The translations under genes and the position numbers were made by a program. The notes below the pieces were generated by a model. The model saw nothing but the letters and a program-made list of their open reading frames with translations. It had not been told where the DNA came from and did not search any database. A stretch of 64,000 bases of DNA from Octopus sinensis (taxonomy: Eukaryota): positions 83,080,001 through 83,144,000 of the forward strand of contig NC_043004.1 of the NCBI RefSeq assembly GCF_006345805.1. The letters run 5' to 3'. Below are positions 3,405 to 62,468 of the stretch, one piece after another; position 1 is the stretch's first letter, and every line of letters begins with the position of its first letter.

Positions 3405-5406
<2,002 letters not shown>

Positions 5407-19234: not shown

Positions 19235-20240
19235 TACACATGCAAAGGTCGTTTATGTAATTTATGAAGAGTAGCGGACCCAAGACAGTCCCCTGTGGAA
19301 CACCGCTGGTGACATTTGCTGGGCTTGAGTGGACTCCATCAACTAGAACGTTGTGTTCTATTCGCCAGGAAATACTTATTCCAGTGTAGAACTTTTCCAC
19401 GGATTCCAACATTTGCCAATTTTGAGAGTAGGATATTATGGTCTACCCTGTCGAACGCTTTACTGAAGTCAAGATATATGACGTCAGAGTTCGAACCTGT
19501 TCCCAAGGCTTTGAGTACATCTTCAATGTGGTGTAAGAGCTGTGTTAGACAATCCCTGCCACAGCGAAAGCCATGCTGATTTGCATTTAGGAGTTTGTAG
19601 GTCTCCAGGAAGTCAGCTATCCTTGATGTGGAAGGTGAGTGAGATTGGGCGATAGTTGAGTGCGAGGGATCTGTTTCCCTGTTTGAAAACCGGGATGACC
19701 GACTAGGATAGAAACTGTTTCGGTATATAACCTGCATCTAACGAATTTCTCCAGAGGTTGGTCAGAGGGACTGCAAGTTGGTGTCTACATTCCTTCAGGA
19801 GACTAGCGGGGAATCTATCAGGGTCTACAGCAGAGTAGTATTTGACCTCATTTATTGCTGCTACGATGTCAGTGGCAGTGAAGGTTATGTCTGAGATTTT
19901 ATGTTGGGAGTCAACTTCGTTCGCTTCTCTTACGTCAATATCAGTGGGAACACTAAAGACAGAGCAGTATTGTTTCTGCAATATTTCTGCCATTCCTTTA
20001 GCATCGTGTTGGGGAATGCCGTTATCATCAATCAATGGCCCAATGGGTGAGACAATGGTTCTATGCTTATTTGCATAAGAATAGAACACTTTTGGGTTCA
20101 GTTTGATGTTTTTGATTACCCACTGTTCCTCCACAGCTCTTTGATTTTCAATGGAGGTTTTCATGTCGGTCTGCAGATGAAGTTTTTCCAGCTCTAGCCT
20201 TTTAATTGTTGTTGAATGTGGATGTTGTGTGTGGGAATAT
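19235..20240 (-). mobile_element. Degraded CR1/jockey-group LINE fragment (family of 34961-37630)
   Basis: [52 protein letters not shown] across frameshifted ORFs. Confidence 0.88.
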
Positions 20241-31330: not shown

Positions 31331-31746
31331 ACCCTTAAAAAACAGGGCCATTGAAAAACGAAACAAAGAGCATTGTTGTAGCACTTTAAGGTCCAGTGTA
31401 TTGCATGAAAGATCAGCTGTAAAACCAGATGTTGAAATAGCTTTGCGTTCAAAGGACAATAGCTTTCCATTTTTCTTTCTGAAATGTGGATGAAGATGTC
31501 ATCATAAAGAAAGCGGACTGTCTGCTATCTAAAATTTTTGAAGTGCCTACTTTGCGGCAAGGAACGCAACTGAGGGCAGCAGCTTAGAATTCCATCATTC
31601 ACCAAATGTATACTAAAGAAGATGGATCAGTAAACGTGTGGCAACATATACGTCGGTGCAACAGCATTGGAATATTTTACGATTTGGTAAAAGACAAAAG
31701 ATGCAATTAAGATTGGGTATTATGAAGATATTGTAAAAACACTCAC

Positions 31747-32700
31747 CGATTTATTTAAATGAATTCCACACAAAATTAATAATATTAAATAAAAGAAACA
31801 GCCAGTTGCCAACATTGACATATATAGGTATGAGTAGAGGTTACTTTTCAGTAAACGGTTTATAACCCCGTAAGTTGCAATACAACAACTAAAATTGCTA
31901 GCAACAACAATAAATCCTGATGTTAGTCGTAAAGATTCATTTAGAAATTTCAGTGTCCTTATCAGAGTTTCATGAGCGCTACATATTTCTGTGATATCTT
32001 TCTGCTTCTTAATGAAATTTGAATGGTCAGGTTGCTTCTCCGTTACATAACGTTCGGCTTCAGTTGCCAACTTGTTGAACTCATAGCTGAGTGTAAATCC
32101 GATTATCAGACCTAAGTGCAAATCAATTACCAAAAGTATAAGTGAAATGGAATTAAGTGCAGTTTGTATTCCTAAAACTGATATTTTAGATATATCACTG
32201 GTTGATATTGGAAACGTTAGGAACCTCATCAAATCGTTATTCAAATACGGTGCGCTAAAATCTACAAATATGTTAGAAAGGATGGTGAAGCAAATAATTG
32301 CATAAAATGTCTTAAATGAATACATGATATTCATGATGGAATATTTTTCATCATCATCTTCAAGTTTAATTTCGGCGACAGCTTCAGCCAGTTGTTTAGT
32401 TTGTGATTTTCTGAAGAGTTTTAACAATGCAAACACAGAAAGACTGCCTCTGAAAAACACCGTGAAACCATACAAAAGTAAGAGATGAATTTTAATTTCC
32501 CCATATAGTATTAAAGTAACAATGTGACGAATAGGGTTTATAATCAAATACAAACAGAACAGAATATAAAGTGCTTGAGAACAAATTGTTGTAAATATTG
32601 GTGACTTCAATGATGAAATAGTCATGCACGATTGGATAAAATTATCACATTTCTGATAGAATTCCAGTAGTTTAAAGAACTGAGTTTCTTTCACTTTCAT
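31747..32700 (-). CDS. GRL paralogue 2, exon 1 (318 aa, TM1-TM6); full gene join(32700-31747, 28157-28089, 26182-26093, 21890-21834) = 389 aa
   Basis: Multi-TM ORF with YEFNKL and HETLIRTLKFLNESL. It ends ..GIHLNKS at donor TCG|GTGAGT (phase 0), followed by three short phase-0 exons as is typical of the GR/GRL family. Confidence 0.85.
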
Positions 32701-34225: not shown

Positions 34226-34904
<679 letters not shown>

Positions 34905-34963: not shown

Positions 34964-37630
34964 TTTGATACTTTGATACTTTGATAGGTTTCGGCCATTA
35001 TTGGCCCAGGCCATGTCTAACTTAATAGCACCACCTGGTGAAGTCTTTCAAGTCAGAATTTGGGCACTATGGCCCACTCAAGTAGAGAGTTATTGTTTAC
35101 AGAGACATATCCGGGTGTAGGGGGTTTATCCGGGATTTCTTGAAGGAATCTGTCCAAAGACTTCTTGAACCCTATAGGGTCAGTTTCTGTTTTAATGTGT
35201 TTTGGTGTAATGTTAAAGAGAGCGGGGCCAATTGAGGTGAAATAATTGTGCCGTATTGTTGTTATGAGATGAGAGTGCGATTTTTGTTTTGGGCGGATGG
35301 CACGGGGCCCAAGCCTTGGATGTACCTTAAAGGTGATGCCAACATCATTTGGGCAATGCTGATGGAATATTTTCCACATCATGCAGATGATGTAGCGCTC
35401 ACGACGACGTTGGAGAGAATAGAGTTTTAGCTTTTCTAGTCGACCCCAATAGTCGAGGCCTGTCATGCCATCTATCTTTTTTGTGATTGCCCTTTGAGGT
35501 GCTTCGACTTTTTTGATACCTTGTATTGTGTGGGGAGACCACAGTGGACAACAGTATTCAAGGTGGGGTCGGGCAAAAGTAGAGAAGAGAAGGATAATGG
35601 TGTGGATATCTCTCGACTGGAAAGTTCTGAGAATCCAGGAACACATTCTGCGGGCCATGTCAACTTTGGTGTTTATATGAGTGGCCCAGCTTACGTTGTT
35701 GTCCACAATTACTCCCAAGTCTCTGATGTTGTTGGACGCCGCGAGAGTTTCACCTGAAGGAAGGGAGTATGGGAGTTTCAGGGCATCCTCTTTTCCAAAG
35801 TGGATTAGCTCAAATTTATCCTCGTTCAGCAGCATATTGTTTTTTTCTGCCCATTGGATAACAGCCAGTAGATCTGACTGAAGGCATGTCCGGTCACTCG
35901 CCTCATTTATGACCTTCTGTAGCTTGGAGTCATCTGCAAAGATTTTTATGTTGCTGTGCTTGATGATGTCATTAATGTCATTAATGTAAATGATGAAAAG
36001 AAGTGGGCCCAGCACAGTGCCTTGCGGAACGCCACTACTGACTTTGGCTGGGCTTGATTTTACCCCTTCAACTACAACATGTTGAGATCTGTCTGTCAAG
36101 AAACACTTAATCCATTTCAGTAACTTTCCAGAGACACCAATGTTGGATAGTTTTTTCAATAGGATCTTGTGATCGACCCTGTCGAAGGCCTTACTGAAAT
36201 CAAGGTAGATGACATCGGTGTTGGAGCCCTCTCCCAAAGCTCTCAAAATGTCCTCAAAGTGATGCAGGAGCTGCGTTAGGCAGTCCCTTCCATTACGGAA
36301 CCCATGTTGGTTGGAGATCAGCCGTCTGTTGCTTTCCAGAAATTGGGTTATTTGAGATCTCACCACCCTCTCAAATACCTTGATGATATGAGAGGTGAGT
36401 GAGATCGGACGGTAATTCACTGCAAGGGACTTGTTTCCCTTTTTGAAAACTGGGACAACAGACTGGGACAGAAGGTTTTTTGGAATATAGCCAGCATCCA
36501 GTGAGTTTCTCCACAGATTAGCAAGGGGAGATGCAAGTTGGTGTCGACACACCTTCAGGACACAAGCAGGGAACCTATCGGGGCCTACTGCTGAATTGTG
36601 TTTTATTTCGTTTATCGCCGCTAAGACATCAGGGGCACTAAACGTTATGTCCGATATAGTGTGTTGGGGGTTGACATCACTGATACAGCCCAGATCGGCC
36701 ATATCAGGATTGCTGAAAACAGAGCAGTATTGTTTCTGCAGTATCTCGGCCATGGATTTGGCATTATCTTGGAGAGTGCCAGTTTCGTCAATTAGAGGGC
36801 CTACAGTGGAGACAGTGACCCTGCGTTTCCTCGCAAATGAAAAGAACACTTTGGGGTTGAGTTTGATTTTTTCAATGGCCCACTTCTCCTCAGCTGATCT
36901 TTGGTTATTGATGAGGGACTTCATGCATTGTTGGAGGTTATATTTTTTGGATTCAAGCAGTGCGATAGCCGTCGAATGTGTGTGTTGCTGTTGGCAGTAC
37001 TTTAGTTTGTTAATTTTTTTGTTTGTTCTTTTTATTTTTCTGATAATGGTTTTTCTGTTTTGGGGGATTCTGCACTTTTTGTTCACAGGTCTTGGTGGGG
37101 AGTGTTTTGCACATATGTCTGTGACGGTGTCTACAAAGATCTGCCAAGATGTTTTATGGTTGGTGGAGATGTGTGTATGTGTAAAGGACCAGTCAACATT
37201 TGATAGCTCGTTCCTGATTGCATCCCAGTTGGCTTTATGGAGATCCATGTTGTCAAATGGGTGGGCTGGAGGAAGGTCACTAGGATTAGCTTTCGGCTGG
37301 TGGAATTTCATGTTACAGAGAACCATGTCATGGTCTGAAAGAAGGGTTTTTTCCACTGTAACGTTATGTATAGTGTTAGTGTGGTTACTAAACACTAGGT
37401 CCAAAATGTTCTGATGTCTTGTTGGTGCAAGGACAAGTTGGGACAAGAAAAACTCATTCGTAAAGTCGAAAAGTGACTCTGCTGCTTCTTTGTCAGCGGT
37501 TGAGGCGGGAGTGCTTGGTTTCAAACAGTTTGTAGTCCAGTCAACACAGGGTAGATTGAAGTCTCCCATCATGAGTATGTTGCTAGAATGGCACTGTTGA
37601 ATAAAGCACTTAATGCTGTTGAGGCATTCT
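34961..37630 (-). mobile_element. CR1/jockey-group LINE with uninterrupted 839-aa ORF2 (C-terminal APE part plus RT), 5'-truncated
   Basis: ORF 35053-37572: GDFNLP, PTR..NILDLVF, SDH (APE); [29 protein letters not shown] (RT). 3' tail (TATCAAAG)n at about 34961-34985. Confidence 0.95.
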
Positions 37631-40679: not shown

Positions 40680-42220
40680 CAACAAATACTGGAAAAAAGT
40701 AAAGAACCAAAACAACTGAACGTACTGACCTTACAATAATTAATTTATGTAAAATATATTTAGACAATAATGAACTCCATCTTTTGGCGAAAGGATCGAA
40801 ATTCACGCTTACACCAACATTTAACCACCAAGAATTAGAGAAGGATATCCAAAAATTCTGTCGGAAATTCCGACTTGTTGAATCCTTCGCTAATAACAGT
40901 AGTGAGATTGATGAATCCCTAATAAGGAATAAATGAAAATTCACCCAACAGAAAGAAGAAATAACTACGTCAACTGATTCATTGATATCCTGACTAAATT
41001 TCTCCTGTTAGACGCAATTTCTCATGTTAGGCTAAATTCTAACAAACCAGAAATGTCTGCACTTACGCGTCTAAGCTATAGCATAATAATCATTAAACAA
41101 GCAGATAAACGAGGTGCTGTCGAATACTACAGGGTTTAGTTAGGACCAATTGAAGGACACAACATTCTGCTGTGATATACCTTCAAATATAGAACCCCAC
41201 CTCATGAAGAATACCAATAACTTGGTACCAAATCACTAAAACTCCCTTGCAAATAATGAAAGAGGCTACATCACCTATTGCCGCATCTGTTGCGTCGTAC
41301 CAAAAATACACAGCTCAAAAGAAATCCTACATGCAGTAAAGAAATGAAGTGAGTACATAAATAAACTTAATACACCCGAAAGATCTAACACTTATACCTA
41401 TTATAGCTGTCCATCATGTCCTACCCATTGTCTAAGCCATTTTATTGATATTATTTTGAAACCATTATGTACTCACAAATTTAGTTTCGTCCTTGATGAC
41501 ATCGACTTCTTGACCCAACTTCCCACAGCAACTGAATTGAATTCACTTTTACTTACTTTTGACGTAGTAAGTCTTTACATCAACATCCCACATGATTTAA
41601 GAATAAAGGCGATTCCCAATAAATTCACCGTGTCATTTACAGTAGATGCAGTCAAATTTATCCTTGTAAAAATACATTCTTTTTCGATGGAAAGTATTAC
41701 ATGCACAGCCATGGAAACGAAATTTGCCCCCGTTTACGCGAACTCCGTAATGGAGTTAGAAAACCAATTCTACCAAAGAGTAGAAGAAAACTACCGCACT
41801 GAATTTAGAAGGTGTATTGAAGATGCATGGACGAGATACTTTGACGATTGCTTCATAATCTGGACAAAATATCTAGATACCCTGGAATAATACAATATCC
41901 TCCTCAACATTCTACCCCTATTCTCCAATTTACGAAGGCGACAAGTAGTAGGAGATTATCATTTCTAGACATAATAGCAATTATGACACTACCATCACCA
42001 CTGATATACATCATAAACACACAAACGCGCATCAATACCTGGACTTTAAATTGTGCCACCCAACACATAAAAAAAGCGATTTCTCATACTGCCTAGCCAG
42101 AAAAAATTGTAACTTTGTGGAAAATGTGAATACAAGAGACAAACACCTAACAGAGCTCAAAGAATTGCTACTAAAACAAAACTACCCACCTCTATTTAAA
42201 GAAAACGGTATGCAACGGCT
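40680..42220 (+). mobile_element. Degraded Penelope-like element RT
   Basis: LAKGSKFTLTP, IIKQADKRGAV, PKIH, FDVVSLYINIPH, AMETKFAPVYAN, RYFDDCF, LSFLDI across broken frames. Confidence 0.8.
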
Positions 42221-42627
42221 ATTTTGATTTAAACCTTTGCTTAGATATATATGACAGTTTGAAGAATGTTGATCTTACAGACTATTATGAGATATCTCAT
42301 GTAAAGAGTATCGTTTGCTCCAAATAAGGATGTAGATTCATTGATTAGCGTGAGATTTAAAAATGAGTAATGATTGCCTCGTCATAGTCACAGATATAAG
42401 CAGAACAACAAACATAACAGATCTATTAGTTAAAGATTGTTTACATATATATATATTTTTTTAAATTATTATTTGAGGGAATAAAATCCAAACTTACAAG
42501 GTAAAAGAATTCAATTTAGAAATACTAAATCAAATTCCACACAATATAATATGTATATAAGATATTAGAAAAAGCACCTTTTATCAATTCAAAATGAATA
42601 ATTACATAGCACCATCTAGAAAATTAC

Positions 42628-43930
42628 GGCTGCTCAACCACTCAAATGTGGAAGTGATATATCTCGACTTTGCAAAGGCCTTTGATAAAGTCGATCATGG
42701 AATGATATGTCACAAACTGCGTGATCTCAACATAGTTGGAAAACTGGGAGAATGGCTTCATGACTTTCTGAAGGATAGAAGTCAGGTGGTAGTAGCCAAT
42801 GGGGCCACCTCCATTAACACACAAATAGTGAGCGGTGTTCCGCAGGGCACTGTTCTGGGACCACTACTGTTCATAATGGCCCTCTCAGACATGCCCTCAG
42901 CCACGCAGAGAGCCACGATCACAAGTTATGCAGATGATACAAAAGTTTCACAGGCAATACAGAACCCTGAGGACACTAAACACCTGCAATGTGAGCTGGA
43001 CGAAATATACAAGTGGGCTGAAAAGAATAGCATGCAGTTCAATGCTGGAAAGTTTCAAGCTTTATACTATCAGCATGCAAAACTGAATGCAATACCCAAT
43101 GAATACACTGGACCCGGAGGGATTGCAATCCCAGAGGCACAATCAGTGCGTGACCTGGGTATTCACATGAGTGATGACGCGACCTTTCATGTACATGTTG
43201 CTAAACTGACACTGAAATGTAGACGGCTGGCTGGATGGATTCTTAGAACCTTTAGAACAAGAGAACAAGAAACCATGATGGTCCTCTGGAAGACACTTGT
43301 CCTAAGCCACTTTGACTATTGCTCTCAGCTATGGTCACCATCCAGTGTCAAGTTGATCACAGAACTTGAGGCGACCCAACGAAGCTACACAAAGAAGATA
43401 GCCTCTATGCAGAATGTAAGCTACTGGGAAAGACTCAAGAGATTAAAATTATATTCCCTGGAGCGTAGGCGGGAAAGATATGCCATAATATACATCTGGA
43501 AGATCCTGGAGGGAAGTGTCCTGAACTTTGGCATCGAGAGTTACGCAAATGCCAGAACTGGGCCCCACTGCGTGGTGCCTAGGACTCCAAACCTGCCATC
43601 AAGATGTAGGACAAGATTCTGTGATAGCCTGGGCTTCCGAGGCCCACAGCTCTTCAATATCCTCCCGAAGAACCTGAGAGACCTGCATGGGGTGGATACA
43701 GATGTCTTTAAAATGAAGCTGGATCTCTTCCTGTCAGGTGTCCCAGATGAACCAACTTCACGGCAGGAGGGGCAGATGAGGGCAGCTGCATCGAACTCTC
43801 TCATGCACCAAATAGCAGTTGCTAGAAAGCCTCCATGAAGTGAAACCAAGTAGCAACACCAAATGGCGGTGCCCCAGCATGGCCACAGCTCATAAGCTGA
43901 AACTAGAATCAATCAATCAATCAATCAATC
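42628..43930 (+). mobile_element. CR1/jockey-group LINE, 5'-truncated, open RT C-terminal frame, (AATC)n tail
   Basis: ORF 42594-43838 ([29 protein letters not shown]). 3' UTR GGCGGTGCCCCAGCATGGCCACAG and tail at 43907-43930. Inserted in one arm of a foldback (about 42560-44120). Confidence 0.93.
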
Positions 43931-44115
43931 ATAATAGAAAAGTTAAAATTAAAATTGAAATAGGTAATACCTATTACATACATTATATTATTTTTGTAAT
44001 TTACTTAATCTTTACTTTTTAATTGTTATTTTAATTTTAACTTTTCTATTATATGTAATTTTCTAGATGGTGTAACTTAATTATTCATTTTGAATTTATA
44101 AACGGTGGTATTTTC

Positions 44116-45077: not shown

Positions 45078-45720
<643 letters not shown>

Positions 45721-45909
45721 TTTTGATAATCAGTGAATAGACTTCACTGAATATAGATATATACAATTGCGAAGTCGAGGCAAATATCACCACCCCCCTC
45801 TTTTTTTTGGTTATTGTGGTGTGTTTGTTTCGAGTGCGTCATTGTGAAGAGGTTGTGAGTTCGAGTTCGTTGGAGGACGTTGAAAAGTTTTTGTTGGAGA
45901 TTTTTGAAA

Positions 45910-47253
45910 ATGCAAGAGCAGACTTATGCGAGAGCAGCAGGCAGAGGCCTAGTTGCCAGTGAACAGGAAATGGAAGAAGTGGTGGTCGAACAGAAAACTC
46001 TAGAGAAGTATTTCGACAGTTTAAAGAGGGAGGGTGACTGCGTGAGAGTCACACCGTCCGAGGAGGAAGAAAGCAACACGGAGAAGCGTATGATTACGTA
46101 CAGGACATGGTGTGTGGCGTCGAAAAAAGTTGAAGTAGCAGAAACGGAAGAAGTAGAAAAGTGTCTGAAGGAAATTGAGGGTGAACCCACATTTTACAAA
46201 AGAGGTAGGAAATATGCCACAGTGGTGGTATATTTTAAAACAGAAAATGAAGCAAAAAAGAATGCAACAAGAATTTTGAAAACGGATAAGTGGACTTTAC
46301 TACCAAGTTACTGCGGAAGGAGGGCAGTGAGGATGAGAATTAGCAGAATTTCGCCCGAATTTAATATGGAGAGGTTGTTGGCGGCAGTGGTTTTCAACTG
46401 CAAGGATAGTGTGGAGGTGTTGAAGGTGGAGAAGTCAACAGAGGTTAAGTGGTGGGGATATACGGTGCAGGTTCTGGCACACATAACCGTGCGAGACCTG
46501 TACAACATCCCGGAGGAGTTGGTCTACCCTGATGAGACACGGCTTAGAGTCGTGGTAGAGGGAAGACCCCCAGTCTGCTATAATTGTAAATCAAGGGGCC
46601 ACCTGAAGGATGTGTGCCCGCGGGAAAAAACGAAAGCACCGGAGGCTGTAATAGAGGAGTGTAAAGATACGTGTGTGGAGGAGGGAGAAGTGCAGGAGGA
46701 AACAAAAGAGCAGCTAAATGAGGATACGGAAGAAGAACGAGCAAGTGCAGAGGAGGAAAGAACAGAAGATAGGAAGAGAACAAGGGTGGAATCACCACAG
46801 GAAGTGCAAAAAAAGAAAAAAATCAAAAGCAAGATAACAGAAGAAAAAGAAGAGAGAACACGCAAAGAAAAGGAAGTAAAAGAGAAGGCGAGAGAGCAGC
46901 CAAGGTCAGAGTTTGACCAAGAATGGGAGACAAGAGTGAAAGAGCAGTTGGAAGCGTGTAAAAAGGGAAGAAGGCCTGCAAGAAAAAACCTGAAAGTAGT
47001 TGTGATGTATATCAAGAATACAGAACTGGAAAAGAGACTTGCAGGTAGGAAAGGGTTGGTCAGGGTGAAGTTGAACCCAAAACTGTATGGTGACGATGTA
47101 AAAGGCGCAGTTATAGAAAAAGAAACATTCACAAAATTAAAAAATATATTTAATGCTATTTATATAACGCATTATGTACGGTATGACAATTTACCAAATG
47201 TTATTGACCAAATGGACTTAATAGAATATATGACGGACGAACGTCCAATATAA
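45910..47253 (+). CDS. Tx1/L1-ORF1-like (Gag-like) CCHC zinc-knuckle protein, unit A1, intact 447 aa
   Basis: MQEQTYA start, RRM-like region, RLRVVVEGRPPVCYNCKSRGHLKDVC (CX2CX4HX4C), K/E-rich linker and a C-terminal domain. No RT follows. Confidence 0.85.
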   Translation: MQEQTYARAAGRGLVASEQEMEEVVVEQKTLEKYFDSLKREGDCVRVTPSEEEESNTEKRMITYRTWCVASKKVEVAETEEVEKCLKEIEGEPTFYKRGRKYATVVVYFKTENEAKKNATRILKTDKWTLLPSYCGRRAVRMRISRISPEFNMERLLAAVVFNCKDSVEVLKVEKSTEVKWWGYTVQVLAHITVRDLYNIPEELVYPDETRLRVVVEGRPPVCYNCKSRGHLKDVCPREKTKAPEAVIEECKDTCVEEGEVQEETKEQLNEDTEEERASAEEERTEDRKRTRVESPQEVQKKKKIKSKITEEKEERTRKEKEVKEKAREQPRSEFDQEWETRVKEQLEACKKGRRPARKNLKVVVMYIKNTELEKRLAGRKGLVRVKLNPKLYGDDVKGAVIEKETFTKLKNIFNAIYITHYVRYDNLPNVIDQMDLIEYMTDERPI

Positions 47254-47657
47254 AAGAATTAGAATATATGTAATGTTAAAAAGTAAAATTGTTAATTGTA
47301 AAATTGTAAAATGTAAAATTGTATTTTGAACTGGAATATATGTAATAGTGAAATGTACAATTGTATTTTAAACGGAACTGCGAGTTGGGGGTTCGTAAGC
47401 CGTTCCATCTCATTATATATAATTCATCTTTATTTCATATTTTATTTTTACTTTATGTACCCCACGTCCCGTCTTGTAATGTCCCGTCTGAATTAGGGCC
47501 ATCTTGCCCAGAATAAAGATATAATATCACCAGCCGACCTTTTTTTTTTTGGAGTCGTTATTCTGGTGTGTTGGTTTCGAGTGCGTCATTGCGAAGAGGT
47601 TGTGACTTCGAGTTCGTTGCTGGAGGACGTGGTGGATTTTATTTGGAAATTTTGAAA

Positions 47658-48978
47658 ATGCAAGACCAGACGTATGCGAGAGATGCAGGCAGAGGCGTGG
47701 TTGCGAGTGAACTAGAAATGGAAAAAGTGGTAGTCGAGAAGAAGACTTTAGAAAAATATTTCGACAGTTTGAATAGGGAGGGTGACTGCGTGAGAGTCAC
47801 ACCGTCTAAAGAAGAAGAAAACAACGCGGAGAAACGTATGATAACATACAGGACATGGTGTGTGGCGTCAAGAAAAATAGAAGTAGCAGAGACGGAAGAA
47901 ATAGAGAAATGTCTGCAAGGAATTGAGGGTGAACCTACCTTTTTCAACAGAGGAAGGAAATATGCCACAGTGGTGGTACACTTTAAAATCGGAAAGTTGG
48001 ACTTTATTACCCAGTTTCTGCGGAAAGAGGGCAGTCACAATAAGAATTAGTAGGATTTCGCCCGAACTTAACATGGAGAGGATATTAGCGGCAGTAGTTT
48101 TCAACTGCCAGGAAAGTGTGGAGGTGGTGAAGGTGGAAAAGTCAACAGAAGTTAAGTGGTGGGGATATGCGGTACAGGTTCTGGCACATATAACCGTGCC
48201 AGACCTATACAACATCCCGGAGGAGTTGGTCTTCCCTGATGAGACACGGCTTAGAGTCGTGGTAGAGGGAAGACCCCCAGTCTGTTATAATTGCAAATTA
48301 AGAGGCCACATGAAGGATGTGTGCCCGCTGGAGAAAACGATAGCACCGGAGGCTGTAACGAAGGAGTGGAAAGATACGTGTGTGGAGGAGGGAGAAGTGC
48401 AGGAGGGAACGAAAGCAGTGGAGGCGCAAACGGAGGATCAGCTAATTGAGGATGTGGAAGAAGAACGTGCAAGTGCAGAGGATGAAAGAACAGAAGATAG
48501 GAAGAGAACAAGGGTGGAATCACCACCGAAAGTTCTAAAAAAGAAAAAAATCAAAAGCAAGATAACAGAAGAAAAAGAAGAGAGAACGTGCAAAGAAAAG
48601 GACGAACAGACAAAGACAGAGGTAAACCTAGAATGGAGAAAAAAAGTGAGATAACAGTTGGATGCTTGTAAAAAGGGAACAAGACCTGTAGGAAAATACC
48701 TGAAAGTATGCGTGTTGTACGTGAAAGACACAGAAGTGGAAAAAAGTCTTGCAGGTAGGAAAGGATTGATTATGGTTAAATTACACCCAAAACTGCATGA
48801 TGACGATGTGAAATTGGTAGTTGTAGATAGAGGAACATTTACTAAATTGAAAAGTATGTTTGATGAGGTTTATTTAACGTATTATGTATGTTATGACAAT
48901 TTGCCAAATGTGATAGACCAGATGGAATTAACAAAGTACATTACGGACGAACGTCCAATAGAACTGGAATATATGTAA
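47658..48978 (+). pseudogene. CCHC ORF1-like, unit A2 (41-nt deletion frameshift at about 47985, stop at 48652)
   Basis: Paralogue of A1 split into ORFs 47568, 47923 and 48658. Confidence 0.85.
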
Positions 48979-49354
48979 TTGTAAAATTGTAAATTGTAAA
49001 ATTGTAAAATGTAAAATTGTAAAATGTAAAATTGTAACATTGTAAATTGTAAAATTGTAAAATGTAAAATTGTATTTTAAACGGAACTGCGAGTTGGGGG
49101 CTCTTAAGCCATTCCATCTAACTCATTACACATAATTCATCTTCATTTCATATTTTATTTTTACTTTATGTAATGTCCCCTCTGCATTCGGGCTATCGTG
49201 CCCATAATAAAGATATAATATCACCAGCCGACCTATTTTTTTTTTTTGGAGTCGTTATTCTGGTGTGTTTGTTTTGAGTGCGTCATTGTGAAGAGGTTGT
49301 GACTTCGAGTTCGTTGCTGGAGGACGTAGTGAATTTTATTTGGAGATTTTGAAA

Positions 49355-50677
49355 ATGCAAGACCAGACGTATGCGAGAGCAGCAGGCAGAGGCCTGGTTG
49401 CGTGTAAACTAGAAATGAAAGAAGTGGTAGTAGAGAAGAAGACTTTAGAAAAATATTTCGACAGTTTGAATAGGGAGGGTGACTGCGTGAGAGTCACACC
49501 GTCCGAAGAAGAGGAAAACAACGCGGAGAAACGTATGATAACATACAGGACATGGTGTGTGGCGTCAAGAAAAATAGAAGTAGCAGAGACGGAAGAAATA
49601 GAGAAATGTCTGCATGGAATTGAGGGTGAACCTACCTTTTTCAACAGAGGAAGGAAATATGCCACAGTGGTGGTACACTTTAAAATCGGAAAGTTGGACT
49701 TTATTACCCAGTTTCTGCGGAAAGAGGGCAGTCACAATAAGAATTAGTAGGATTTCGCCCGAACTTAACATGGAGAGGATATTAGCGGCAGTAGTTTTCA
49801 ACTGCCAGGAAAGTGTGGAGGTGGTGAAGGTGGAAAAGTCAACAGAAGTTAAGTGGTGGGGATATGCGGTACAGGTTCTGGCACATATAACCGTGCCAGA
49901 CCTATACAACATCCCGGAGGAGTTGGTCTTCCCTGATGAGACACGGCTTAGAGTCGTGGTAGAGGGAAGACCCCCAGTCTGTTATAATTGCAAATTAAGA
50001 GGCCACATGAAGGATGTGTGCCCGCTGGAGAAAACGATAGCACCGGAGGCTGTAACGAAGGAGTGGAAAGATACGTGTGTGGAGGAGGGAGAAGTGCAGG
50101 AGGGAACGAAAGCAGTGGAGGCGCAAACGGAGGAGCAGCTAATTGAGGATGTGGAAGAAGAACGTTTAAGTGCAGAGGATGAAAGAACAGAAGATAGGAA
50201 GAGAACAAGGGTGGAATCACCACCGAAAGTTCTAAAAAATAAAAAAATAAAAAGCAAGATAACAGAAGAAAAAGAAGAGAGAACGCGCAAAGAAAAGGAA
50301 GTAAAAGAGAAGGCGAGAGAGCAGACAATGACAGAGGATGACCAAGAATGGGAGCCAAAAGTGAAAGAGCAGTTGGAAGCTTGTAAAAAGGGAAGAAGAC
50401 CTGTAGGAAAAACCTGAAAGCATTCGTGATGTATATCAAAGACACAGAAGTGGAAAAAAGACTTGCAGGTAGGAAAGGATTGATCAGGGTGAAGTTGCAC
50501 CCAAAACTGTATGGTGACAATGTGAAAGGGGTAGTTATAGAAAAAGAGACATTTACAAAATTGAAAAGGATATTTAATGCTGTTTATGTAGCGCAATATG
50601 TTCGTTATGACAATTTGCCAAATGTGATAGAACAGATGGTATTGATAGAGTATATGACGGACGAACGTCCAATATAA
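49355..50677 (+). pseudogene. CCHC ORF1-like, unit A3 (same 41-nt deletion; frameshift near 50410)
   Basis: Paralogue split into ORFs 49340, 49614 and 50426. Confidence 0.85.
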
Positions 50678-50923
50678 AAGAACTTGAATACATGTAATGT
50701 TAAAATGTAAAATTGTAAATTGTAAAATTGTATTTTAAACGAAACTGCGAGTTGGGGGCTCCTAAGCCATTCCATCTAACTCATTACACATAATTCATCT
50801 TCATTTCATATTTTATCTTTTACTTTATGTACCCCACGTCCCGTCTTGTAATGTCCCCTCTGCATTCGGGCCATCGTGCCCATAATAAAGATATAATATC
50901 ACCAGCTGACCGGTGTCTGTTAC

Positions 50924-50968
50924 TCTAGGCCGATGAAGGAAAACGATCCTGAAACACGTGTCCCTAGA
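50924..50968 (+). ncRNA. Minimal type I hammerhead ribozyme (CCGANGA core variant, palindromic stem III)
   Basis: TCTAGG-CCGATGA-AGGA(aaacga)TCCT-GAAAC(acgt)GTC-CCTAGA. Confidence 0.72.
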
Positions 50969-51239: not shown

Positions 51240-52438
<1,199 letters not shown>

Positions 52439-52585: not shown

Positions 52586-53664
52586 TATATATATATACAT
52601 CGTCGGTAAATCATAAATCCGAAAAGGAAGTTGCAGAGCGGTATAGTATAAAACTAGATAAGGCCGTTCTATGAGAATACCCTGGGTTTCAAGTCCATAA
52701 AGCGTTTAGCTTCACCACTTATTATCAGACCCCGAAACCTGTTGGCACATGGCCCCTCTAACAAGCGCTTTTCTTTACTTCGCTAGCATGTCAGATTTTC
52801 GATAGGAAGAGGATTCATGCTAATCACTCGAAACTTTGGGGGAAAAAATGTGCCGTGTATGCTTCTACCATGAGCATCGTATCAGGGGACAAGGAACGAA
52901 ACCAGGACCTGATTTCAATATTTTGAATGGTTTTTTTTTATATATATATTAGCATTAAAGACCCGTCGTTGCCGGGTCATAGTGCTAGTGCATGTATATA
53001 TGTGTATACATATGTGTACATATTACATGTACATCTATATATACATCTACACATAAAATACAAAATACAAAGTTATATCTTGATATCGCTAGTGATAACA
53101 ATATTCAAAATATATCACAGACTGGAATTGTTAGCCCGTCTCTTGTAATTTCGATCAATTGTATCTTGTCCTCCCTCTTGTATAGAAGTGTGGCTCCAAT
53201 CCAGCCTACTTCTACTGCTGGGGGGGGGGGCATTTAAATTTTTTTCCCGGGACGTCCTACGTCCCAGATATAATATTTCCACTTTGCAATTTCGAGTCGA
53301 GTACTCCCTTCCATGCTCCGTTGACTCGAACCTTGCTTCTATTGTGTCGAATTTACCGCCTCTGATTAGATATCTTTCATAGTCGCACCAAGACACTTTT
53401 CGAAGGTGCTTTCCTCTATGTGATTTTATTACTACCCACAAGGGGCGAACATAGAGGGGACAATACAATCGGGGAACTTAAAATAAGAAAGCGAAATGAC
53501 AAGAAGGGAAAAAATAAAAATAAAAATGACAAATGAAAGAATATTTACAATGAGATGCAAATGCCCACTCGATCCCCGGAATCGAGAGGTTACATTTTCG
53601 TCACCTATAGTTCACAATTTTTTTTTTCTTTTTTCTCTTCTTTCTTCTCTCTCCTCTCACAATC

Positions 53665-55063
53665 TCACACGTATTCCATAATACTTTTCAAGTCTCTAAA
53701 GTCAATCACTGAGCCCTCAGGCAGCCGCTCTTTCACTCGAACACCCGTGTAAAAATTACACTCTCTCCAGCTGCTCTGAGGAACTCAGCGACTCTTTCTT
53801 CGGGGATCAGAGCAGTCTCCTGCCACTGATCAGTCATCCTGTTGACCCACACATGTCCCTCCATACTACATGTCAATTCCTTCATTTCGGGGCTGAAATG
53901 GAAGGTTATTAACTTGTAGTAATCTTGTTTCCGTCCTACGTTTTCTCTCGTTTTTCTTTTCGGGCTTATTTCTTCCTTGTTCTCCTCTCTTTGTTTCTCT
54001 CTTTCTCTCTTTTTGCCTTCTTTTCTTTCTTCTTCCTTCTCTTGTCTTTTTGGTTCTTTGTCTGTTCTCTCTTTCTCTCGTGTTTTATGTTCCTTTTCTT
54101 TTTCTTTTTGTGTGCCGTCTTTTCTTTTCGTTTGGTTCTGTTCTCTCTCTTGTTTTTTTCCTGTTGTTTCTTTTTCCTTTTTCTTTTCCTGACTCTGTTT
54201 TGGTTCTATTTCTTTCTTTTCTTTTATTTCTTTTTCCTTCGTTGACTTATTATTTCCTTTCTCTTGTTGTTTTGTCTCCTTTTCTATGTTTTCTTTTTCA
54301 TTTACCGTATTCTTCTTTTCTTCATTTTCCTTCTCATACTCCGCCATGAATTCATATAACGGGCACTCTTTTTTAATGTGCCCCCTTGTCCCGCACAAGT
54401 AGCAGTTTGGCTTTCTTCCCTCTACAATTACACTGAGGGTTTTCTCGTCTTCGATTTCTATTCTATAGGGGAACCTTTCAATGTCCTCTTTTGTGGCCAT
54501 CAAACACAGTTCTACCCCATATCCTCTCCAATTTACTGCGTTGGACTCCTTAAAGGATTCCACCTCCACTTCCTCTTCTGCTGCTCCTAGAATAGCTGTT
54601 GCCAGCCATTCTGTTTTTACTTCTGGGGGTATATTCGGGATTTTAACCCGGACCCCTCTTCTTCCCTTGTATGAGGGCCACATTATAAATGTTTCCGCTC
54701 TTAGAACAGTGGTAGCCAGTGAGGCTGCAATTTCTTCCGTTGCACATCTCACCTCCACCGTACCAAATTTTTTTCCTCTACTCACGTAGGTCGATTTATC
54801 CATTATGTCTCCCAGACATTTTTCGATCTCTGCTATCTCCACTCTTGCCAGTTTCTTTGTACTTTTGTCCTGGGTTCTATACGTTACAGTTTTGTTTTCC
54901 TTGTCCTCCTTTGCTTTCGCGGGGGGATTAGCTTCACGCTATCACCCTCCCTTTTGAATAGCTTTTCATATTCTTTGATTTTACTTTTCTCAAAGAAAAC
55001 ATCCTTCACGATTATTGCCGAATCATTATTATTCTTTCCCGTGACCCCCGCGTAAGTCGCCAT
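53665..55063 (-). pseudogene. CCHC ORF1-like, unit B2 (two 1-nt homopolymer deletions relative to B1)
   Basis: Near-identical to 55447-56847. Length 1399 versus 1401 nt. Confidence 0.8.
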
Positions 55064-55446
55064 GACTAGAGGGTCAATTCACCTTCTTCAGAAGGTTTCC
55101 AAACGTGGAGGCAAATGCCTCGCGCGATATTAATCACTTTACACAACAAAATTTCAACGTCTAATCACAGATAACAACACACGTGGGTAAATTTCCTCCA
55201 TGTGATTTTATTACTACCCACAAGGGGCGAACATAGAGGGGACAATACAATCGGGGAACTTAAAATAAGAAAGCGAAATGACAAGAAGGGAAAAAATAAA
55301 AATAAAAATGACAAATGAAAGAATATTTACAATGAGATGCAAATGCCCACTCGATCCCCGGAATCGAGAGGTTACATTTTCGTCACCTATAGTTCACAAT
55401 TTTTTTTTTCTTTTTTCTCTTCTTTCTTCTCTCTCCTCTCACAATC

Positions 55447-56847
55447 TCACACGTATTCCATAATACTTTTCAAGTCTCTAAAGTCAATCACTGAGCCCTC
55501 AGGCAGCCGCTCTTTCACTCGAACACCCGTGTAAAAAATTACACTCTCTCCAGCTGCTCTGAGGAACTCAGCGACTCTTTCTTCGGGGATCAGAGCAGTC
55601 TCCTGCCACTGATCAGTCATCCTGTTGACCCACACATGTCCCTCCATACTACATGTCAATTCCTTCATTTCGGGGCTGAAATGGAAGGTTATTAACTTGT
55701 AGTAATCTTGTTTCCGTCCTACGTTTTCTCTCGTTTTTCTTTTCGGGCTTATTTCTTCCTTGTTCTCCTCTCTTTGTTTCTCTCTTTCTCTCTTTTTGCC
55801 TTCTTTTCTTTCTTCTTCCTTCTCTTGTCTTTTTGGTTCTTTGTCTGTTCTCTCTTTCTCTCGTGTTTTATGTTCCTTTTCTTTTTCTTTTTGTGTGCCG
55901 TCTTTTCTTTTCGTTTGGTTCTGTTCTCTCTCTTGTTTTTTTCCTGTTGTTTCTTTTTCCTTTTTCTTTTCCTGACTCTGTTTTGGTTCTATTTCTTTCT
56001 TTTCTTTTATTTCTTTTTCCTTCGTTGACTTATTATTTCCTTTCTCTTGTTGTTTTGTCTCCTTTTCTATGTTTTCTTTTTCATTTACCGTATTCTTCTT
56101 TTCTTCATTTTCCTTCTCATACTCCGCCATGAATTCATATAACGGGCACTCTTTTTTAATGTGCCCCCTTGTCCCGCACAAGTAGCAGTTTGGCTTTCTT
56201 CCCTCTACAATTACACTGAGGGTTTTCTCGTCTTCGATTTCTATTCTATAGGGGAACCTTTCAATGTCCTCTTTTGTGGCCATCAAACACAGTTCTACCC
56301 CATATCCTCTCCAATTTACTGCGTTGGACTCCTTAAAGGATTCCACCTCCACTTCCTCTTCTGCTGCTCCTAGAATAGCTGTTGCCAGCCATTCTGTTTT
56401 TACTTCTGGGGGTATATTCGGGATTTTAACCCGGACCCCTCTTCTTCCCTTGTATGAGGGCCACATTATAAATGTTTCCGCTCTTAGAACAGTGGTAGCC
56501 AGTGAGGCTGCAATTTCTTCCGTTGCACATCTCACCTCCACCGTACCAAATTTTTTTCCTCTACTCACGTAGGTCGATTTATCCATTATGTCTCCCAGAC
56601 ATTTTTCGATCTCTGCTATCTCCACTCTTGCCAGTTTCTTTGTACTTTTGTCCTGGGTTCTATACGTTACAGTTTTGTTTTCCTTGTCCTCCTTTGCTTT
56701 CGCGGGGGGGATTAGCTTCACGCTATCACCCTCCCTTTTGAATAGCTTTTCATATTCTTTGATTTTACTTTTCTCAAAGAAAACATCCTTCACGATTATT
56801 GCCGAATCATTATTATTCTTTCCCGTGACCCCCGCGTAAGTCGCCAT
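55447..56847 (-). CDS. Tx1/L1-ORF1-like CCHC zinc-knuckle protein, unit B1, intact 466 aa
   Basis: MATYAG.., EIEKCL, RGKKFGTVEV, GRRGVRVKIPNIPPE, LSVIVEGRKPNCYLCGTRGHIKKEC, K/E-rich tail. Homologous to A1. Confidence 0.87.
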   Translation of the reverse strand: MATYAGVTGKNNNDSAIIVKDVFFEKSKIKEYEKLFKREGDSVKLIPPAKAKEDKENKTVTYRTQDKSTKKLARVEIAEIEKCLGDIMDKSTYVSRGKKFGTVEVRCATEEIAASLATTVLRAETFIMWPSYKGRRGVRVKIPNIPPEVKTEWLATAILGAAEEEVEVESFKESNAVNWRGYGVELCLMATKEDIERFPYRIEIEDEKTLSVIVEGRKPNCYLCGTRGHIKKECPLYEFMAEYEKENEEKKNTVNEKENIEKETKQQEKGNNKSTKEKEIKEKKEIEPKQSQEKKKEKETTGKKQEREQNQTKRKDGTQKEKEKEHKTREKERTDKEPKRQEKEEERKEGKKREREKQREENKEEISPKRKTRENVGRKQDYYKLITFHFSPEMKELTCSMEGHVWVNRMTDQWQETALIPEERVAEFLRAAGESVIFYTGVRVKERLPEGSVIDFRDLKSIMEYV

Positions 56848-57840
56848 GACTAGAGGGTCAATTCACCTTCTTCAGAAGGTTTCCAAACGTGGAGGCAAAT
56901 GCCTCGCGCGATATTAATCACTTTACACAACAAAATTTCAACGTCTAATCACAGATAACAACACACGTGGGTAAATTTCCTCTATGTGTTCAAATCTTCT
57001 TTTTTTTCTACATTGTATACTTTTTAGACAATAGTCTTTTCTTTAATTAATTTTTTTATTATCCATCTGGACTATTCCATTTCTGCACGCGAATTTTATT
57101 TTTAATTTATTCTCATTCATGTGAAACCACTTATTCAAGTTCAAGTCATTGATGCAATTTTATACCAATTGCTATTTTTACTTTTTTTATGTTACGATTA
57201 TATTACACTTTAGTTTAATTTTAATTATTACTTCCTACATATAATTCAATTGTTATTATTATTTTTATTGTTAAAATGAAAGTATCTGACATAAAATAGA
57301 GAAACGTTTTTGCTTCACTTTTAACACGTAATACTGAAATAGTGGAGAAGATATGATGTTGCTATGGGCTTGCTATAGGCAAGAAGTTGAACATTTTTTG
57401 CGCCTGAAACTATATGGACCCTAATTAAGGCATGTGTAAAATTTGAATGGAATTGGTTGTGTATTTCTCAAGCTTTAGGGAATCGTAGTGGAGAAGATAT
57501 GATATTGTTGTGGGCTCGCCCTAGGCAAAAAGTTAAAAATAATTTGCCCATGAGACTCCCCGGACCCTAAGAAAGGCATGTGTAAAATTTGAAGGAAATT
57601 GGTTGTGTAGTTCTCAAGTTTTAGGGAAACACACAGACAGACAGACACACACACATTCTCAGTTTTATATATATATAAAGATTTCCGTAAAAGTTTCAAC
57701 AAACAAAAACAGTAAAGGAAGCACTGGTAAAAAAACTTACTTGAATATACACAAATATTTGATCAAATTTTAAAGTGTGCCTGTCCATAAAATATGCAAT
57801 CTGGCAAATAGGGTTCATAATGAAATATTTACAGAGCACA

Positions 57841-58220
57841 AGTGTGGCTGTGTGGTAAGTAGTTTGCTTACCAACTATATGGTTCCGGGTTCAGTCCCAC
57901 TGTGTGGCACCTTGGGCAAGAGTCTTCTACTATAGCCGCGGGCCGACCAAAGCCTTGTGAGTGAATTTGATAGACGGAAACTGAAAGAAGCCCGTCGTAT
58001 ATATATTTATATATATGTGTGTATTTATGTATCTATGTTTATCCCTCCCCCCCACCATCGCTTGAGAACCGATGCTGGTGTGTTTACGTCCCCGTAACTT
58101 AGCGGTTTGGCTAACGAGAACGATAGGCTTACAAAGAATAAGTCCGGGGTCGATTTGCTCGACTAAAAAGCGGTGCTCCAGCATGGCCGCAGTCAAAATG
58201 ACTGAAAACAACTAAAGGAG
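57841..58220 (+). mobile_element. SINE family A, full length
   Basis: Matches 12616-13050, ending GCGGTGCTCCAGCATGGCCGCAGTC. Confidence 0.85.
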
Positions 58221-60216: not shown

Positions 60217-61965
60217 TCTTAAAATCCTTAAATCCTTAAAAATGTTTTAGCCCGAAGGCCGCGGCCATGCTGGGGCACCACCGCTGAATGAGCCACACTA
60301 GTTTGTGAATCCACCTCTGATACGTGGCACTTGATCAACAAGGGAGTTCGATGCTGCTGCCCGCATCCGTGTCTCCTGTCGTGAGGTAGGTTCATCTGGG
60401 ACTCCCAACAAGAAGAGATCCAGTTTAGTTTTAAAGAAACCCACATCCACACCATGTAAGTCTCTCAGGCATTTAGGGAGGATGTTGAAAAGCTGTGGTC
60501 CTCTGAAACCCAAGCTGTTGCAGTATCTGGACCTGTATTTTGATGGTGATGTTGGAATCCTTGGCACCACGCAGCGGCGCCCCGTTCTGCGGTTGGAGTA
60601 ACTTTGAATGCCAAAGTTTGGGATAAGACCCTCCAGGATTTTCCAGATGTATATTACTGCATATCTCTCCCGCCTCCGCTCCAGGGAGAAGAGGTTTAAT
60701 ACCTTCAGTCTTTCCCAGTAGCTGACATTTTGCATTGAGACGATTTCTTTGTGTAGCTTCTCTGAGTTGCTTCGAGTTCTGCTGTTTGTTTTATATTGTG
60801 TGGTGACCAAAGTTGGAGCAGTAGTCCAAGCGGCTGAGGACAAATTTTTCCATAGGACCATCAGTGTCTCCTTCTCTCTTGTTCTGAAAGTTCGGAGAAT
60901 CCATCCAGCTAGCCGTCTGCATTTTATCACCAGATTAGCAATATGCATTTGGAAAGATGCATCATTGCTCATGTCAATGCCCAGGTCACGCACTGATTTT
61001 GACTCAGGGATTGCAATTCTTCCTGGGCCAGTGTATCCAGTCTTCACGTCATTTACTTTGTGTGCCAGTAGCGCAGGGCCTGGAACTTACCTGCATTAAA
61101 CTGCATGTTGTTGTCCTCAGCCCACCTGTATATTGTGTCCAGCTCATGTTGCAGATGCGCAATATTTTCAGGGTTCTGTATTGCGTGGGAGACCTTTGTG
61201 TCATCTGCATAGCTAGCAAGGGTGGTCATCGTAGCAACTGAAGCATGTCTGAAAGGGCCACTATGAACATCAGTGGCCCCAAGACAGTGCCCTGTGGGAC
61301 ACCGCTTGTTATTTGCGTTTCCCTGGAGGTGGCTCCATTGCTCACAACTGCCTGTTTTCTGTCTTTTAGGAAGTTGTGCAGCCACTCTCCAAGTTTCCCG
61401 CCTATGCCGAGACCACGCAGTTTGTGACAGATCATACCATGGTCGACTTTATCAAAGGCTTTTGCAAAGTCAAGATATATTACATCCACATTTGAGCCAT
61501 TTAGTAGCTGTTTCAACACCCAGTCATAGTGTTGCAGGAGCTGTGTTAGGCAGCCTCTACCTGGTCGAAATCCATGCTGGGTGTCAGACAGTAAGTCATT
61601 TTCTTCAAGGAACATGATTAGTTTCTTACGGACTATTCGTTCCATGACTTTGCTGATGTGTGAGGTCAGAGAGATAGGCCTATAATTTTTAGCATCTGCT
61701 CTGCTCCCTCCCTTATGGATAGGGCATATTACCCCGTCTTTCAGTTTGACTGGGAGCTTACCACTTGCAAGAAAGCTCTGAAAAAGAAGCTGTAGCGGTT
61801 TTGCAAGGGCTCGTTTGCACGATTTGAGAAGGATCGCTGGGAATCCATCAGGTCCAGCAGCTGAGTTTGTGTCAATCTCATCAATGGCTAGTGTGATATC
61901 ATCTTCTTCGATGTTGATGTACTCAATTTTTGTCTCTTTGGCCGCTGGTAAAGTGGCAAAGAATC
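60217..61965 (-). mobile_element. CR1/jockey-group LINE, 5'-truncated, frameshifted
   Basis: ORFs 61226-62044, 61053-61385 and 60298-61047 carry RT motifs. 3' GGTGCCCCAGCATGGCCGCGG and (AAGGATTT)n tail. Confidence 0.92.
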
Positions 61966-62468
61966 TAGTTAAAAAACAAACAAGCCCACAAACTCTCGCA
62001 CGCACACACACACATATACACACAGAGGCTGGTTTTCTTTGCATGACAATCGTTTGAACTTCTTTATATATGTATACTATAAATCTTAGAGAGACTTCTC
62101 TCTAAGAAATTCACAAGTGCTGATATGAAATACATCTGTGAGTTTTGCTTCAGCAAAAGCATTTTCTGAGAAATAGCAGCAAACGTCTACTTTTCTTCTA
62201 ATATACAAAGAAATGTTTATCTGTTACATATTGTCGTAGAAATAGAAATGAGGGTTAAATATAGTAATTAATTTCGAAGCAGAGAATTCATTTGTTCGAA
62301 TGTATAGTCATATATTCACACTATTCTACAAACGCACGCGCGTACACGCGGACATCTCTCTCCCTTTCTCTCTCTCTACCTTTCTTTTTCTCTCTCTCTT
62401 TCTGCATATATATATACGCATGTGTGTATGCATACATACACGCACATATGTATATACAATATACATAC

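Follow-up and report, generated by a model that had tools for sequence, protein, structure and literature searches.

How two head-to-tail, protein-coding units of almost 1.8 kb came to stand in AT-rich animal DNA dense in microsatellites is the question raised by a 64-kb window of the Octopus sinensis genome (NCBI RefSeq assembly GCF_006345805.1, contig NC_043004.1, forward-strand positions 83,080,001 to 83,144,000; the window is this whole stretch, and positions below are counted within it). A sequence-only reading had assigned these units, element B, together with a second array in the same window, array A, to a real class of ORF1-only retroelements. That view holds in so far as the units are flanked by target-site duplications (TSDs), apparently multicopy and provided with a constrained 3′ end, but the class itself was already known. 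We conclude that A and B are probably non-autonomous ORF1-only long interspersed nuclear elements (LINEs), and that element B is a real and biologically coherent entity for which the support is now stronger than in that reading.

Two B units of about 1783 bp had been reported, and exactly two were found, head-to-tail on the minus strand with periods of 1784 and 1782 bp. Their reported bounding repeat, TTTCCTC(T/C)ATGTG, was confirmed at all three junctions (53410, 55192 and 56976, with T, C and T, respectively) and occurs nowhere else in the window. The units are 99.8% identical, and B2 does differ from B1 mostly by homopolymer indels, namely two single-base indels (53750 and 54920) in addition to the junction substitution. 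Two frameshifts interrupt B2, leaving an intact 466-aa open reading frame (ORF) only in B1 (55447–56847, minus strand), whose 1771 nt comprise a 128-nt 5′ untranslated region (UTR), this single ORF and a 242-nt 3′ UTR. No reverse transcriptase (RT) or endonuclease is encoded within the TSD-bounded unit, its 1.77 kb leave no room for ORF2, and no terminal inverted or long direct repeats of at least 11 nt were detected at the B ends besides the TSD.

The origin of the 13-mer can be read from its surroundings. On either side of the dimer lie pieces of a decayed third member of the ORF1 family, copy D, in the same orientation as B (Table 1); the downstream piece is 33% identical to B-type proteins and 45–57% identical to other relatives. 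The 13-mer itself reads as copy D codons, corresponding to profile columns 74–78, and the upstream piece stops 14 nt before it, compared to an expected 12, with an A-run in between. Because the flanks of the dimer are consecutive, collinear pieces of copy D split at the 13-mer, the 13-mer around B is a true TSD. The same collinearity indicates that the pre-insertion site was one continuous ORF with a single 13-mer, so that the empty-site check proposed by the sequence-only reading could be run from the window flanks themselves, and the empty site reconstructed in this way implies that the mobile B unit lacked ORF2. B is thus nested inside a third ORF1-family copy, a point that goes beyond the earlier reading.

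Table 1 Positions of the B units, their target and array A within the window, B features being listed in element sense.
Feature	Position	Strand	Basis
Copy D, part upstream of insertion, profile columns 54–69	57003..57050	-	Score 12.05; 0/109,646 background positions reach it
5′-side 13-bp TSD copy, CACATAGAGGAAA in element sense	56976..56988	-	Target origin from copy D flanks
Element B1, 1771 nt, without poly(A), long terminal repeat (LTR) or terminal inverted repeat (TIR)	55205..56975	-	Junction repeats, end comparison
ORF1, 466 aa	55447..56847	-	ORF listing, Pfam, structure model
Upstream 3′ UTR block common to family A	55293..55342	-	Shuffle-tested alignment
Conserved 3′ motif TTGTA.TGTCCCCTCT...TTCG	55228..55250	-	Motif scan
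4-bp GC stem then AATAAA, stopping 2 nt short of junction	55205..55228	-	Inspection of 3′ ends, fold test
Middle 13-mer copy, one substitution	55192..55204	-	Junction comparison
Element B2, 1769 nt, equal to B1 bar two homopolymer frameshifts	53423..55191	-	Unit comparison
3′-side TSD copy	53410..53422	-	Junction comparison
Copy D, part downstream of insertion, profile columns about 74–174	53135..53422	-	Profile E 3e-7 and 0.006; tblastn E 1e-9
Array A, three units	45783..50911	+	Unit and junction comparison

The B protein had been described as a divergent homologue of the array A product, and it indeed aligns with the A1 protein at 37% identity over 265 aa (E 1e-44). Its closest match is a 99.2% identical Octopus vulgaris model, and a profile built on both families retrieved 883 relatives at E ≤ 0.001, of which 150 were listed and 20 looked up; the 11 named relatives among these 20 are all from Octopus or Argonauta. 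A word-index search with A1 returned no match. From the N-terminus, the B protein contains an RRM (about residues 49–135), a second RRM/ferredoxin-like domain (about 136–217), a single CCHC knuckle exceeding the Pfam cut-off (220–235), a K/E-rich linker and a C-terminal domain of about 85 aa without an assigned fold, for which an atlas search gave no match. Homology of the C-terminal domains of B and A was not supported (473 and 99 of 1000 shuffles).

Prediction from the single sequence yielded a pLDDT of only 38, compared to 92.5 for the N-terminal 245 aa modelled from a 120-sequence alignment. Tandem-RRM proteins were the top Foldseek matches of the model (E 1.8e-5), albeit with a low whole-chain TM of 0.28, and VIA-align placed residues 47–135 on the La RRM (Z 9.1, rmsd 2.6, 82 aligned) and residues 134–218 on RRM/ferredoxin-like folds with middling Z of about 7–7.7. 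L1 ORF1p was absent among the listed fold matches, which does not exclude it; a PDB sequence search produced zinc knuckles and low-complexity matches only, and Transposase_22, the type II ORF1p domain, had no Pfam match in the modelled RRM-RRM-CCHC protein. The combination of RRM and CCHC characterises type I ORF1, which passages of PMC5203782 ascribe to Tx1 as well as to elements of the Jockey superfamily. According to the model, therefore, B ORF1p would be a type I ORF1 protein with two RRM folds and one CCHC. Since type I ORF1 also occurs in Jockey-superfamily elements, it does not fix the parent clade, and membership of the Tx1/L1 clade rests on the RT, which B lacks; a Tx1/L1 parent is nevertheless likely.

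Among the A copies, ORF1 is under purifying selection, with dN/dS for A1 versus A2 and A3 of 0.18 in the RRM-CCHC part and 0.24–0.29 overall. A scan covering 129 of the 150 listed relatives brought up neither an RT nor an endonuclease domain among the families shown (25 of 44), and no fused forms of 1092–3115 aa were matched, which is weak evidence; because ORF2 is normally a separate protein, the missing RT domain in these relatives is uninformative on autonomy. ORF1 fragments were also seen spliced into the host gene models P0069, P0090, P0112 and P0122, three of them with WD40, LDL-receptor and astacin domains, and these may represent annotation chimeras or exonisation.

We then compared the 3′ ends of A and B. 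The 3′ motif said to be shared by both families is present at all five units, with a spacer of three N rather than the four proposed: in the form TTGTA.TGTCCCCTCT...TTCG it has no mismatch in B1, B2 and A3, one in A2 and two in A1, and it matches nowhere else in the window (0.01 matches expected; five were reached in 0 of 100 shuffles), whereas the best window match to the four-N version carries two mismatches. The GC hairpin and TAATAAA described near the junction were likewise recovered as a 4-bp GC stem followed by AATAAA in both families (GAATAAA in A1). To call the DNA otherwise dissimilar was a slight overstatement, as a second 3′ UTR block of ~50 nt is common to A and B, with a score exceeded in 0, 0 and 1 of 2000 shuffles for A1, A2 and A3, respectively. 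Over 236 codons, A and B are 56, 61 and 32% identical by codon position, third positions being near saturation. This similarity at the 3′ end has outlasted that at silent sites, which argues for constraint on the shared 3′ end. None of the five units carries a poly(A) tail, each stopping 2–5 nt past AATAAA.

Several further candidates were tried at the unit ends. Across the window, including the junctions, Rfam gave no match at gathering score and by E-value only weak or microsatellite-driven ones, and a ribozyme or known RNA at the junctions was accordingly rejected. An A-like 3′ end at 53150–53310 (plus strand) was discarded as well (103 and 270 of 2000 shuffles), the region being copy D on the opposite strand. 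An 18-nt match between the 5′ UTRs of A1 and B (45875–45900 and 56928–56945; 5 of 1000 shuffles) is not found in A3. A post hoc observation concerns the stretch CCTCTATGT of the B motif (55232–55240), whose reverse complement matches 9 nt of the TSD (53410–53422) exactly; complementarity as good occurs in 72 of 110,514 window 13-mers (6.5e-4) and in 0 of 5600 ORF1-sense 13-mers. In A the corresponding match extends over 5 nt only and does not repeat that of B, and we hold it most improbable that target choice is guided by base pairing between the target and the variable motif core.

Array A has the same layout as B. A1 retains an intact 447-aa ORF (45910–47253), A2 and A3 share a frameshifting 41-bp deletion, and A1 is 86–88% identical to A2/A3 (12–14% diverged), with 86–94% identity among the units overall. 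A 17-mer stands at the two internal junctions and at the right end (16/17 there), whereas no more than the first 10 nt of it are present at the left end. The 3′ ends of all three units abut one and the same target base, with duplications of 10 or 17 bp. These junction repeats are likely TSDs, and the pattern fits an earlier insertion with a 17-bp TSD followed by a last insertion, the intact A1, which used the same first nick and left a 10-bp TSD. A2 and A3 are 99–100% identical over about 600 bp and 84–86% over the 3′ coding part; the near-identical tract (about 47840–48400 and 49535–50100) includes the 41-bp deletion in copies that are elsewhere 84–97% identical, suggesting gene conversion or recombination. 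When array A was excised in silico, two in-register copies of a hammerhead-bearing repeat remained, 362 bp apart, which is consistent with, but not proof of, a target that was continuous before insertion. A and B, at one locus each, thus lie in different target sequences, the hammerhead-bearing repeat and copy D.

Directly after array A, a type I hammerhead-like motif (50924–50968, plus strand) with a CCGATGA core and a palindromic helix III was the sole match of a motif scan and was not detected by Rfam. The repeat that carries it also forms a 517-bp palindrome at 45205–45721 and is presumably Penelope/retrozyme-like. By inspection, segments at 223–1854 (minus strand), about 42050–42220 and 52310–52370 are probably fragments of a Penelope-like RT and another hammerhead-like remnant; the first of these segments had no Pfam match.

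Next, by examining relatives in O. vulgaris, where the data for other loci are at the protein level, we found 22 B-related proteins among the 30 cluster members read; 18 of these share the C-terminus of B and lie on 7 contigs. These dispersed B-type copies are 92–99% identical and many are broken or truncated, a protein-level hint that B is a dispersed multicopy family. Five runs have consecutive accessions (CAI9715245-249 and 251; CAI9719596/7; CAI9729052/3; CAI9739099-101; CAJ1099379/80), four of them with non-identical copies, which suggests clustering across the family. A separate multicopy ORF of 89 aa (P0020-P0030, P0003), present as one exact sequence on 9 contigs and without a match in the window, precedes B-type sequence as a spliced-in upstream part of 4 of the 22 B-related models, hinting at mixed nests; its homology to the ORF1 C-terminal domain is unproven (10 of 1000 shuffles pairwise, 515 of 1000 with a leave-one-out profile).

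From these observations, we infer that B was mobilised in trans and stacked by re-insertion at the same site. A unit would be transcribed and its RNA bound by its own ORF1p, and an endonuclease/RT supplied by an autonomous LINE, most likely of L1/Tx1 type, would bind the conserved 3′ end. Staggered nicks and target-primed reverse transcription by this presumed enzyme would then create the TSD of 10–17 bp, with cDNA synthesis starting 2–5 nt past AATAAA, where the junctions are observed, and poly(A) left uncopied. Since the boundary between upstream flank and TSD would be preserved by insertion, later copies could insert there again, on the 5′ side of their predecessor, forming head-to-tail arrays with a TSD at every junction that may later undergo conversion or unequal exchange. 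At the B locus, the target would have been the ORF1 of the decayed relative D. Same-site re-insertion fits array A; for B it is indistinguishable from local duplication or assembly error. The 3′ motif would serve as an RT recognition site, and it could also be a promoter or 3′-processing signal.

A number of findings weigh against trans-mobilised ORF1-only LINEs. We detected no sequence link between B ORF1 and a named L1/Tx1 ORF1, zinc knuckles being the only Pfam matches in more than one of the 120 alignment members, and an atlas match points to ZCCHC3-like RNA-binding domains (score 0.89, a lead only). HAL1 and L1 elements carry a 3′ poly(A) tail, unlike the A and B units. Fold stability of the 3′ ends did not go beyond that of shuffles (z -0.14 to -1.41), so that a stable conserved RNA structure was rejected, and the stems of the two families have different sequences and, when aligned without gaps, are offset by one column. 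The LINEs of the window carry no A/B motif, no autonomous partner was found within it, and the unrelated target sequences of A and B are ill-suited to one strictly sequence-specific enzyme. In O. vulgaris, consecutive accessions denote adjacency, not head-to-tail spacing of 1.8 kb, and the three identical proteins that form one of the runs may be isoforms.

Two alternatives survive well. In the first, which we regard as a serious possibility somewhat short of even, A and B arose recently and independently by loss of ORF2 from two related autonomous Tx1/L1 families, their common 3′ end is the parental 3′ UTR, and a long-lived ORF1-only lineage does not exist. Parts of the literature report repeated independent origins of HAL1 (PMC5753468) and about 40% ORF1-only families among Drosophila telomeric elements (PMC13534243), and the 883 relatives are not assignable to autonomous or non-autonomous elements; yet in A, subfamilies that differ by 14% all comprise ORF1-only units whose ORF1 is under purifying selection. 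Such an origin is compatible with trans-mobilised ORF1-only LINEs and would alter the age of the lineage only. No less plausible is that the element is the same but that the B dimer arose by local duplication between the 13-bp repeats after one insertion, or by an assembly or polishing artefact. The near-identity of B1 and B2 speaks for this, as internally they differ by no more than two homopolymer indels of the kind that long-read errors produce, whereas the limits of the duplication would coincide exactly with the element ends, the junction carries a substitution of its own, array A shows the same layout with 86–94% identical units and neighbours within the O. vulgaris runs differ from one another. 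This explanation touches only the tandem, not the identity of the element.

We consider it unlikely, though less so than what follows, that the 3′ block is, instead of an RT-binding site, a polyadenylation or 3′-processing signal, or a promoter of the next array unit that gives arrays a selective advantage. The 3′ end of HeT-A acts in just this way as promoter for the next unit; AATAAA lies at the extreme end of the A and B units, the next unit starts U/GU-rich, clustering is apparently family-wide and no significant RNA structure was found. About 140 nt with two conserved blocks nevertheless exceed the requirements of polyadenylation, and the element end is fixed just behind the block, as would be expected of an RT start site; signal and RT-binding roles are, moreover, not mutually exclusive. 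A domesticated, intronless host family of ZCCHC3-like RNA-binding genes, spread as retrocopies and tandem duplicates, would account for purifying selection, the atlas lead and AATAAA, but the TSD-flanked insertion into a decayed paralogue, the many broken or truncated copies, the spread over 7 contigs at 92–99% identity and the missing poly(A), unlike ordinary retrocopies, make it very improbable. Scarcely credible, and largely refuted, is a Gag-only LTR, DIRS/Ngaro or Helitron-type element propagated via a circle with the 13-mer as its own recombination core, since the exact head-to-tail units, CCHC knuckle and subterminal hairpin that recall it are outweighed by a 13-mer that consists of target codons of the copy D ORF, an alpha/beta RRM fold in the model instead of a capsid, terminal repeats that do not extend beyond the TSD, and A junctions that differ and vary in length.

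A more far-reaching version of ORF1-only LINEs is an old, self-perpetuating octopod superfamily whose members preferentially home into one another and build mixed head-to-tail nests via a shared poly(A)-free 3′ signal. It would comprise many lineages at 21–46% protein identity to B, and in its boldest form would include the pairing of motif and target considered above; we judge this version distinctly unlikely.

Other features of the window include pieces of LINE ORF2 at 35053–37572, 3469–5102 and 60298–62044 (all minus strand) and at 19245–20165, none with the A/B motif; in the first, an open frame of 839 aa covers RT and a partial endonuclease. A further LINE at 42594–43931 ends in (AATC)n, and its 3′ tail (43857–43902), the only LINE tail compared, matches the tail of an abundant local short interspersed nuclear element (SINE; 58162–58207) and not the A/B 3′ end, so that the two are likely a LINE-SINE pair. 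Paralogous hydrophobic ORFs at 7070–8194 and 31720–32700 (both minus strand), which agree at 77 of 297 aligned residues and had no Pfam match, probably encode multi-pass membrane proteins and may resemble exons of gustatory-receptor-like chemoreceptors. Two-copy tandem repeats of 146 bp and 278 bp occupy 57340–57628 and 34226–34856, respectively.

Repeat surveys keyed to RT miss ORF1-only elements such as A and B, and gene annotation lists their ORFs as uncharacterised octopus genes or splices them into host models, thereby inflating lineage-specific gene counts. A short 3′ end common to two near-saturated families offers a natural footprint of a cis-signal and a probe for the autonomous partner. 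The locus also opens to test why selection on ORF1 persists in a parasite dependent on a foreign RT, and how insertion at one site seeds tandem arrays.

The type of element is known: passages of PMC5786205 recognise non-autonomous LINEs with ORF1 in HeT-A from Jockey, HAL1 from L1 and Ag-Sponge from CR1. B has the corresponding features, an ORF1p-type protein, no endonuclease or RT, a TSD and no LTR or TIR, and is therefore a cephalopod variant and not a new class. The literature searched contains no description of the octopus family (Repbase, Dfam, subscription papers and supplements lay outside this scope, and an entry there is possible), and the family is not mentioned in the available text of octopus and mollusc repeat surveys (PMC9115989, PMC10294476). 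The cephalopod branch thus appears undescribed in a type known from flies, mosquitoes and mammals, and ORF1-only LINEs, named in the literature for three lineages, would be extended to cephalopods and probably to type I ORF1.

With HAL1, a non-autonomous L1 derivative encoding ORF1p only according to sections of PMC5753468 and PMC5786205, B shares this coding content and TSDs, but mammalian L1 ORF1p is type II, with a coiled coil, one RRM and a CTD, in the part of PMC5203782 concerned; a type I RRM-RRM-CCHC ORF1 and the lack of poly(A) set B apart from HAL1 proper, as do its TSD-sandwiched arrays. HeT-A and its telomeric Jockey relatives are described in portions of PMC13534243 as ORF1-only, CCHC-bearing, arrayed head-to-tail and mobilised in trans, much like A and B; they are, however, telomeric and 8 kb on average, whereas A and B are interstitial, 1.7–1.8 kb long and accompanied by a target duplication at each junction. 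Ag-Sponge of Anopheles, of CR1 origin, is a non-autonomous LINE with ORF1 (PMC5786205), as B probably is. The Tx1 clade and its dependants (Tx1L in Tx1D; Tx1-Mar with SINEU-3) differ in that SINEU is non-coding with poly(A) and Tx1L has ORF2. They share with B a type I ORF1, insertion into transposons, tandem copies that sandwich a TSD and related families nested at one target (extracts of PMC4494074, PMC1950540 and PMC5203782), and both the preference of Tx1 for other transposons (PMC4494074, PMC1950540) and the formation of TSD-sandwiched tandems via sequential insertion (PMC4494074; 10.1101/158386) are set out in these partial sources, in line with what we propose for B.

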